Shown here: positions 44,538 through 44,557 of the stretch, piece after piece
Layout of the letters: each line of letters opens with the position of its first letter
Numbering within the stretch: position 1 is the first letter of the stretch
Sequence record: PP925841.1
Source: Escherichia phage HannyBb
Strand: one strand, 5' to 3'
DNA length: 45,272 bases
Notes under the pieces: model-generated
What the model saw: the letters and a program-made list of their open reading frames with translations, nothing else
The model's database searches: none
Told to the model about the DNA's origin: nothing
Translations under genes and position numbers: made by a program

Positions 44538-44557
44538 ACGGGGCGGGAGCGTCGCGG
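44538..44557. other. Candidate cos site (cosN-like) for terminase cutting
   Basis: ACGGGGCGGGAGCGTCGCGG aligns with the recalled lambda cos junction ACG|GGGCGGCGACCT|CGCGG with the same spacing (9 of 12 overhang positions identical); lies ~170 bp upstream of the small terminase gene. Confidence 0.45.

Follow-up and report, generated by a model that had tools for sequence, protein, structure and literature searches.

A probable lambda-like cos site with a predicted variant cohesive end upstream of the terminase genes of Escherichia phage HannyBb

Positions 44512–44724 of Escherichia phage HannyBb (PP925841.1) very probably form the cos of a Tritos/cdtI-like lambdoid phage, within which the segment 44539–44554 would be a functional cosN that gives the 12-nt 5' cohesive end GGGCGGGAGCGT. 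The stretch of DNA analysed (the window) is the whole 45,272-bp lambdoid genome, presented as a circular permutation that starts at the terL ATG. On this reading HannyBb is a cos-type packager for which an overhang of 12 nt, 5' in polarity, is predicted; its genome would truly begin on the left at 44541, with terS as the first gene, and position 1 of the window would be merely the terL start codon.

Resemblance to the lambda cohesive-end junction

The sequence at 44538–44557 reads ACGGGGCGGGAGCGTCGCGG and can be parsed as ACG/GGGCGGGAGCGT/CGCGG. An earlier note on this DNA had given the architecture of the lambda junction as ACG, a 12-nt overhang and CGCGG, and this proved correct when both ends of NC_001416 were checked, the right end being ...CAGGTTACG (...GGGTCCTTTCCGGTGATCCGACAGGTTACG) and the left end GGGCGGCGACCT followed by CGCGGG... 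(CGCGGGTTTTC...). The same note had counted three substitutions in the presumed overhang, but ungapped comparison of the 12-mer with lambda GGGCGGCGACCT revealed four, at bp 7 (C>G), bp 8 (G>A), bp 9 (A>G) and bp 11 (C>G). Identity to lambda was 8/12 over the 12-mer, 6/6 at bp 1–6 and 16/20 when the flanks were included.

No match was obtained when the window was searched with the lambda 20-mer at three or fewer mismatches, because the real distance is four. With four mismatches allowed, 44538–44557 was the sole match in the whole window on either strand, compared with a chance expectation of ~0.025 per window and ~1e-4 for the 300-nt stretch preceding terS; the mean over 300 shuffles of the sequence was 0.023 matches. 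The runner-up, at window position 18357 on the + strand, has five mismatches, lies in the structural gene region without cosQ context and is probably a chance resemblance. The lambda-like cosN candidate with a variant cohesive end proposed in the earlier note was present as described, the number of substitutions apart, and its interpretation as cosN is supported: features of cos that are testable at the sequence level were found around it, the R elements of cosB as tentative candidates.

Layout of the cos region and the terminase genes

The features of the region are listed in Table 1, with cos numbering taken from the first G of the 12-mer (bp 1, window position 44541).

Table 1. Candidate cos elements and neighbouring genes in the HannyBb window
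Feature	Position	Strand	Remarks
Endolysin gene	41221–41754		Upstream of cos
Rz gene	41751–42248		Upstream of cos
cosQ candidate GGGTCCT, packaging-termination element	44512–44518	+	Sole copy in the window, both strands
cosN core, CG + 12 bp + CG	44539–44554		CG flanks and bp 1–6 same as lambda
Predicted 12-nt 5' cohesive end GGGCGGGAGCGT	44541–44552	+	The cdtI and Tritos records open with this 12-mer
Conserved cosN–cosB segment CGCGGAAAAAGGCTAGTTTTTG	44553–44574 (bp 13–34)	+	Position analogous to lambda I2
Candidate TerS-binding element, R3-like, CATGGCGGCGGCAGCATG	44581–44598 (bp 41–58)	+	Assigned by position
IHF-binding consensus, I1-like, TATCAATAAATTA = WATCAANNNNTTR	44604–44616 (bp 64–76)	-	Perfect consensus match
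Direct repeat TTTTCACCTG, copy 1, candidate accessory TerS site	44634–44643	+	Varies at 3 positions among relatives
Direct repeat TTTTCACCTG, copy 2	44711–44720	+	Just upstream of terS start; nearly invariant among relatives
terS, small terminase, DUF1441 family	44725–45264	+	Pfam DUF1441 E 1.7e-44; PHROG 141 E 4e-65
terL, large terminase, gpA family	1–2100	+	Pfam GpA_ATPase E 5e-81, GpA_nuclease E 1.8e-86

The motif ends up where the earlier note had placed it, between the lysis-distal genes and terS: terS begins 184 nt beyond it, and on its other side several small accessory genes intervene between the lysis genes and the cos site. These accessory genes include a CspI/CspB-like cold-shock gene (42609–42824) and a YbcW-like small ORF (43968–44174), both of which match accessory genes of the Tritos prophage that show high expression in LF82 (PMC9928086). 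In addition, a 51-aa ORF (44459–44614) runs across cosQ and cosN into the first part of cosB. The records of mEp460 and related phages label its equivalent ‘hypothetical protein’, and the ORF probably represents a spurious call over cos.

The terS gene starts at bp 185 from the nick, compared with bp 191 for lambda Nu1, and its end is separated from terL by 8 nt across the wrap of the window, a spacing equal to that in cdtI. No significant similarity was detected between HannyBb TerS and lambda Nu1 (E 4.6). TerL showed 24% identity to lambda gpA by BLASTP (E 5e-22), and the terL product is the enzyme expected to nick cosN. The presence of a gpA-type large terminase argues against headful (pac) packaging, which was rejected on these grounds.

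The cosQ heptamer ends 22 nt before the nick, whilst the identical heptamer of lambda ends 23 nt before it. The CG dinucleotides at 44539–44540 and 44553–44554 border both predicted nicks, which would fall at 44540/44541 on the top strand and at 44552/44553 on the bottom strand; this placement, and with it the predicted length of 12 nt and the 5' polarity of the overhang, is based on homology together with the ends of the cdtI and Tritos records. Two-fold symmetry in the cosN core extends to 8 of 16 positions, against 10 of 16 in lambda. The conserved segment that follows cosN is common to phages of three cosB/terS classes, which diverge from about bp 34.

The earlier note had pointed to 44557–44725 as the interval in which IHF and terminase-binding repeats might lie, and a perfect IHF consensus was found there together with candidate terminase-binding elements. 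Only three perfect matches to the IHF consensus occur in the window on both strands, and TTGAT/TTGTT-type motifs lie roughly as far from the nick in mEp460, PhiR40_1, mEp213, PSTCR8lys, Fels-1 and VT1-Sakai. At the position of the R3-like element, phages of other terS classes possess the class-specific motifs CATCATCATCAT, GTCATCACCAC or GCCACCATCATC, and a similar CATGCTGTCAGCAGCAGG occurs in PSTCR8lys, which has the nearest terS homologue (56% identity) once those at 99% or more are set aside; the element may tentatively be regarded as a TerS-binding element. The 10-mer TTTTCACCTG occurs twice in the whole window, both times in cosB, and the copies could be accessory TerS sites, a weak assignment for copy 1, which varies among relatives. 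An exact repeat of at least 10 nt arose in 2.3% of shuffles, and the pair is only marginally non-random. A repeat search of cosB gave no convincing lambda-style R3/R2/R1 triplet, and for this reason, together with the marginal status of the pair and the variability of its first copy, all R-site assignments were kept tentative.

By analogy with lambda, from which we infer the nicks, the polarity and length of the overhang, the binding of IHF and TerS and the function of cosQ, the DUF1441-type small terminase would bind class-specific cosB elements (~44575–44724) on concatemeric DNA, helped by an IHF-induced bend at 44604–44616, and would place the gpA-family large terminase on cosN. The large terminase would then nick the two strands at the predicted positions to leave the 12-nt 5' overhang, and packaging would proceed rightward, across terS and then, past the wrap to window position 1, into terL, until it stopped at the next cos, where cosQ with cosN would direct the terminal cut.

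Deposited relatives, conservation and alternative readings

Megablast of the region identified two deposited phage genomes that open at the predicted nick: the record of cdtI (AB285204/NC_009514) starts at window position 44541 and that of Tritos (OV696610) ends at 44540. Both records start with GGGCGGGAGCGTCGCGG (GGGCGGGAGCGTCGCGGAAAAAGG...) and both end in ...CTGCCACG (...CCACG). The HannyBb cos is the deposited terminus of two phage genomes, and so already known. In both phages the cosQ heptamer, the 12-mer and the flanks are identical to those of HannyBb, cosB is 98–100% identical and TerS is 100% identical; differences from HannyBb are confined to the DNA left of cosQ and to early and accessory regions, which are mosaic. 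Identity between Tritos and the window is 100% over 44541–44740, from the nick into terS, and 98.7% over the structural half (24 kb), and Tritos covers 65% of the right half of the window at 95.7% identity. This phage was isolated as a plaque-forming siphovirus and corresponds to prophage 3 in E. coli LF82 (PMC9928086). The word cos is absent from the Tritos paper (PMC9928086), in which the basis of the genome ends is not stated, and the cdtI record carries a circular flag; the start points of both records may have been chosen by homology.

There is a small chance that the site is a genuine cos cut with another geometry, giving an overhang of a different length (e.g. 9–14 nt) or nicks shifted by at least one base. 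Relatives with the same terminase families vary in the spacing between the flanks, with 1 bp less in VT1-Sakai and 14 nt in Gifsy-2, and the end of Cr-LKS3 has been reported as 9 nt (PMC9303873). The residual doubt about cut geometry stems from these other spacings, from a TerL only 24% identical to gpA and from a TerS unrelated to Nu1. In HannyBb, however, the conserved CG dinucleotides are exactly 12 bp apart, as in lambda, these CG flanks are the conserved nick contexts described in the literature (PMC4669245) and the cdtI and Tritos records were opened at exactly the predicted nick. A functional cosN with a 12-nt overhang is the preferred reading.

The conservation of the site was investigated in 80 IMG/VR loci that share this TerS. 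The 12-mer GGGCGGGAGCGT was found in 78 of the 80 loci and GGGCGGCAGCGG in one. For the interval −150 to +200, the 79 loci with a locatable nick were aligned with the window and cdtI, giving 81 sequences of which 64 were unique. In the 64 unique sequences cosQ, positions −4 to +6, positions +13 to +21 and the IHF core were invariant, and bp 7 and bp 12 each varied in a single locus of the 81-sequence alignment, in which the cosQ–cosN spacer was polymorphic and everything left of cosQ was mosaic. The invariance of cosQ, cosN and the IHF core beside variable flanks implies purifying selection.

The cos region was also abundant in gut metagenome contigs. None of these started at the nick among the matches listed and several broke 20–22 nt away from it, as expected of assemblies interrupted at a repeat that prophages have in common. 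The IMG/VR matches inspected continued straight across the cos site.

Prevalence in bacterial chromosomes bears on whether the site is still in use. Of 5,426 complete E. coli genomes, 881 contained the full cos region and 2,122 a part of it, and many lambdoid prophages are defective; both points favour a relic whose sequence had been kept in a defective prophage and was no longer used by the HannyBb element. This is very improbable. The genome in the window is complete (45.3 kb), its terS and terL are intact, the invariant elements within variable flanks imply purifying selection, and the identity to plaque-forming Tritos over the structural half and the cos–terS segment was the ground on which a dead relic site was rejected. 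Least credible of all is a chance GC-rich likeness to lambda cosN, with packaging by headful or from a cos elsewhere, which was rejected on the match statistics (~1e-4 matches expected at this location) and which sits poorly with the co-occurrence of cosQ, IHF and spacing features, the gpA-type TerL and conservation that spans many phages.

Exchangeable cassettes and comparison with known cos sites

When 80 IMG/VR contigs with an identical 29-bp cosN core were compared, three classes of cosB could be distinguished from about bp 34 onward, namely the window/cdtI type, the mEp460 type and the PhiR40_1 type. The TerS proteins of the mEp460 and PhiR40_1 classes were only ~42% identical to that of HannyBb. 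From nt 97 on, terL was ~95% identical to the terL genes of mEp460 and PhiR40_1, whilst nt 1–96 were divergent and co-varied with terS class. In other words, terL contains a mosaic joint, with its opening 32 codons (96 nt) following the terS class; this would fit a TerS-binding N-terminus swapped together with cosB and terS. The occurrence of three classes on one core, together with the terL joint, points to an exchangeable unit consisting of cosB, terS and the TerL N-terminus, with cosQ–cosN held in common. The split parallels that in lambda and 21, where a shared cosQ–cosN is distinguished from a specific cosB–TerS.

It is possible, but rather unlikely, that the four right-half changes represent a separate cohesive-end compatibility group common to at least three swappable cassettes of E. 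coli prophages. In that case HannyBb-type ends would not fully anneal to lambda-type ends. Lambda-like packaging termination requires only cosQ and cosN, and co-resident prophages with different cassettes could then terminate at each other's cos, with the packaging of hybrid or intervening chromosomal DNA driving joints at ~bp 34 of cos and nt 97 of terL.

The limits of cosQ, cosN and cosB should be useful for cosmids, transduction studies and end-aware assembly in this prophage group, which is very common in E. coli. In the literature, the only full-text matches to GGGCGGGAGCGT were unrelated papers on human and rat promoters.

Lambda-like phages have been defined by 12-base 5' extensions resembling those of lambda, and natural differences in cosN are concentrated at bp 7–12, occurring at bp 9 and 12 in N15 and at bp 8, 9 and 11 in Gifsy-1 (Feiss and colleagues, PMC4669245). 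[quoted passage not shown] HannyBb conforms to these rules, in that its four differences from lambda fall within bp 7–12 and the CG flanks and cosQ are retained.

The features shared with lambda comprise the GGGTCCT cosQ, the left half ACG/GGGCGG, the CG flanks, 12 bp between the predicted nicks, an IHF consensus in cosB, a terS that begins ~185–191 bp after the nick and a TerL of the gpA family. In contrast, the HannyBb cosB is unrelated to that of lambda and lacks CGTTTCC-type R sites at the lambda positions. HannyBb falls outside the Nu1-type packaging-specificity group (lambda, 21 and N15), since its TerS belongs to DUF1441 and its cosB is unlike that of lambda.

Comparison with other natural cosN variants gave a consistent picture. 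N15 and phiD326 differ from lambda at bp 9 and 12, with the left half and CG flanks fixed; the changes of Gifsy-1 are at bp 8, 9 and 11, to which HannyBb adds bp 7. Ends of this type, inferred or annotated, are GGGCGGCGCGCT in LLS (PMC12315714) and mEp213 (record feature) and, from the sequences read, GGGCGGCAGCGG in Fels-1 and GGGCGGGAGCGG in mEp460, again with right-half changes only. DUF1441-type terS genes 35–42% identical to that of HannyBb are found in mEp460, mEp213, LLS, Fels-1 and Gifsy-2, and the HannyBb cosB and terS make up a specificity class distinct from these natural cosN variants. More distantly, the cyanophage Cr-LKS3 is reported to have 5'-extended cohesive ends of 9 nt with lambda-like flanks (PMC9303873), and its terS is homologous to that of HannyBb (38% identity).

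Several records of related phages showed departures from this layout. Upstream of terS, VT1-Sakai carries CACG/GGGCGGGCGGGCG/CGGAAAAAGG, where the conserved flanks are 1 bp closer together, and in Gifsy-2 the flanks of CCACG GGTGGCTTCGGGCT CGCGGG enclose 14 nt; at the expected place of cosQ, AGGTACTCC occurs in Gifsy-2, Fels-1, Chris1 and PSTCR8lys. Overhang length and cosQ sequence may accordingly be variable within the DUF1441-terS group. In Ayreon (MF807953, ~44400–44560), ~150 bp lie inside cosN, between CCACGGGG and GGAAAAAGG, and include a fragment resembling the terS C-terminus, ETLPDILERDCGLQPAAVSRVQ, annotated within a ‘putative late gene regulator’. This insert looks like an artefact of assembly or of genome opening at the cohesive ends; the Ayreon genome announcement merely assumes a cos upstream of terS. 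In the last ~220 bp of mEp460_ev081 (LR597641), a ~97-bp cosB segment (GGCTAGTTTTTGAAATTTCATCC...GATTGTTTTTTGT) is present twice in tandem, reflecting either true duplication of cosB or an error of assembly.

Overall, the HannyBb cos is a catalogued member of a well-studied class, with nothing conceptually new for the lambda-like cos paradigm. Judged by its sequence, the site belongs with the DUF1441-terS group of cdtI, mEp213, Gifsy-2 and Fels-1, and by analogy it would work like lambda cos.
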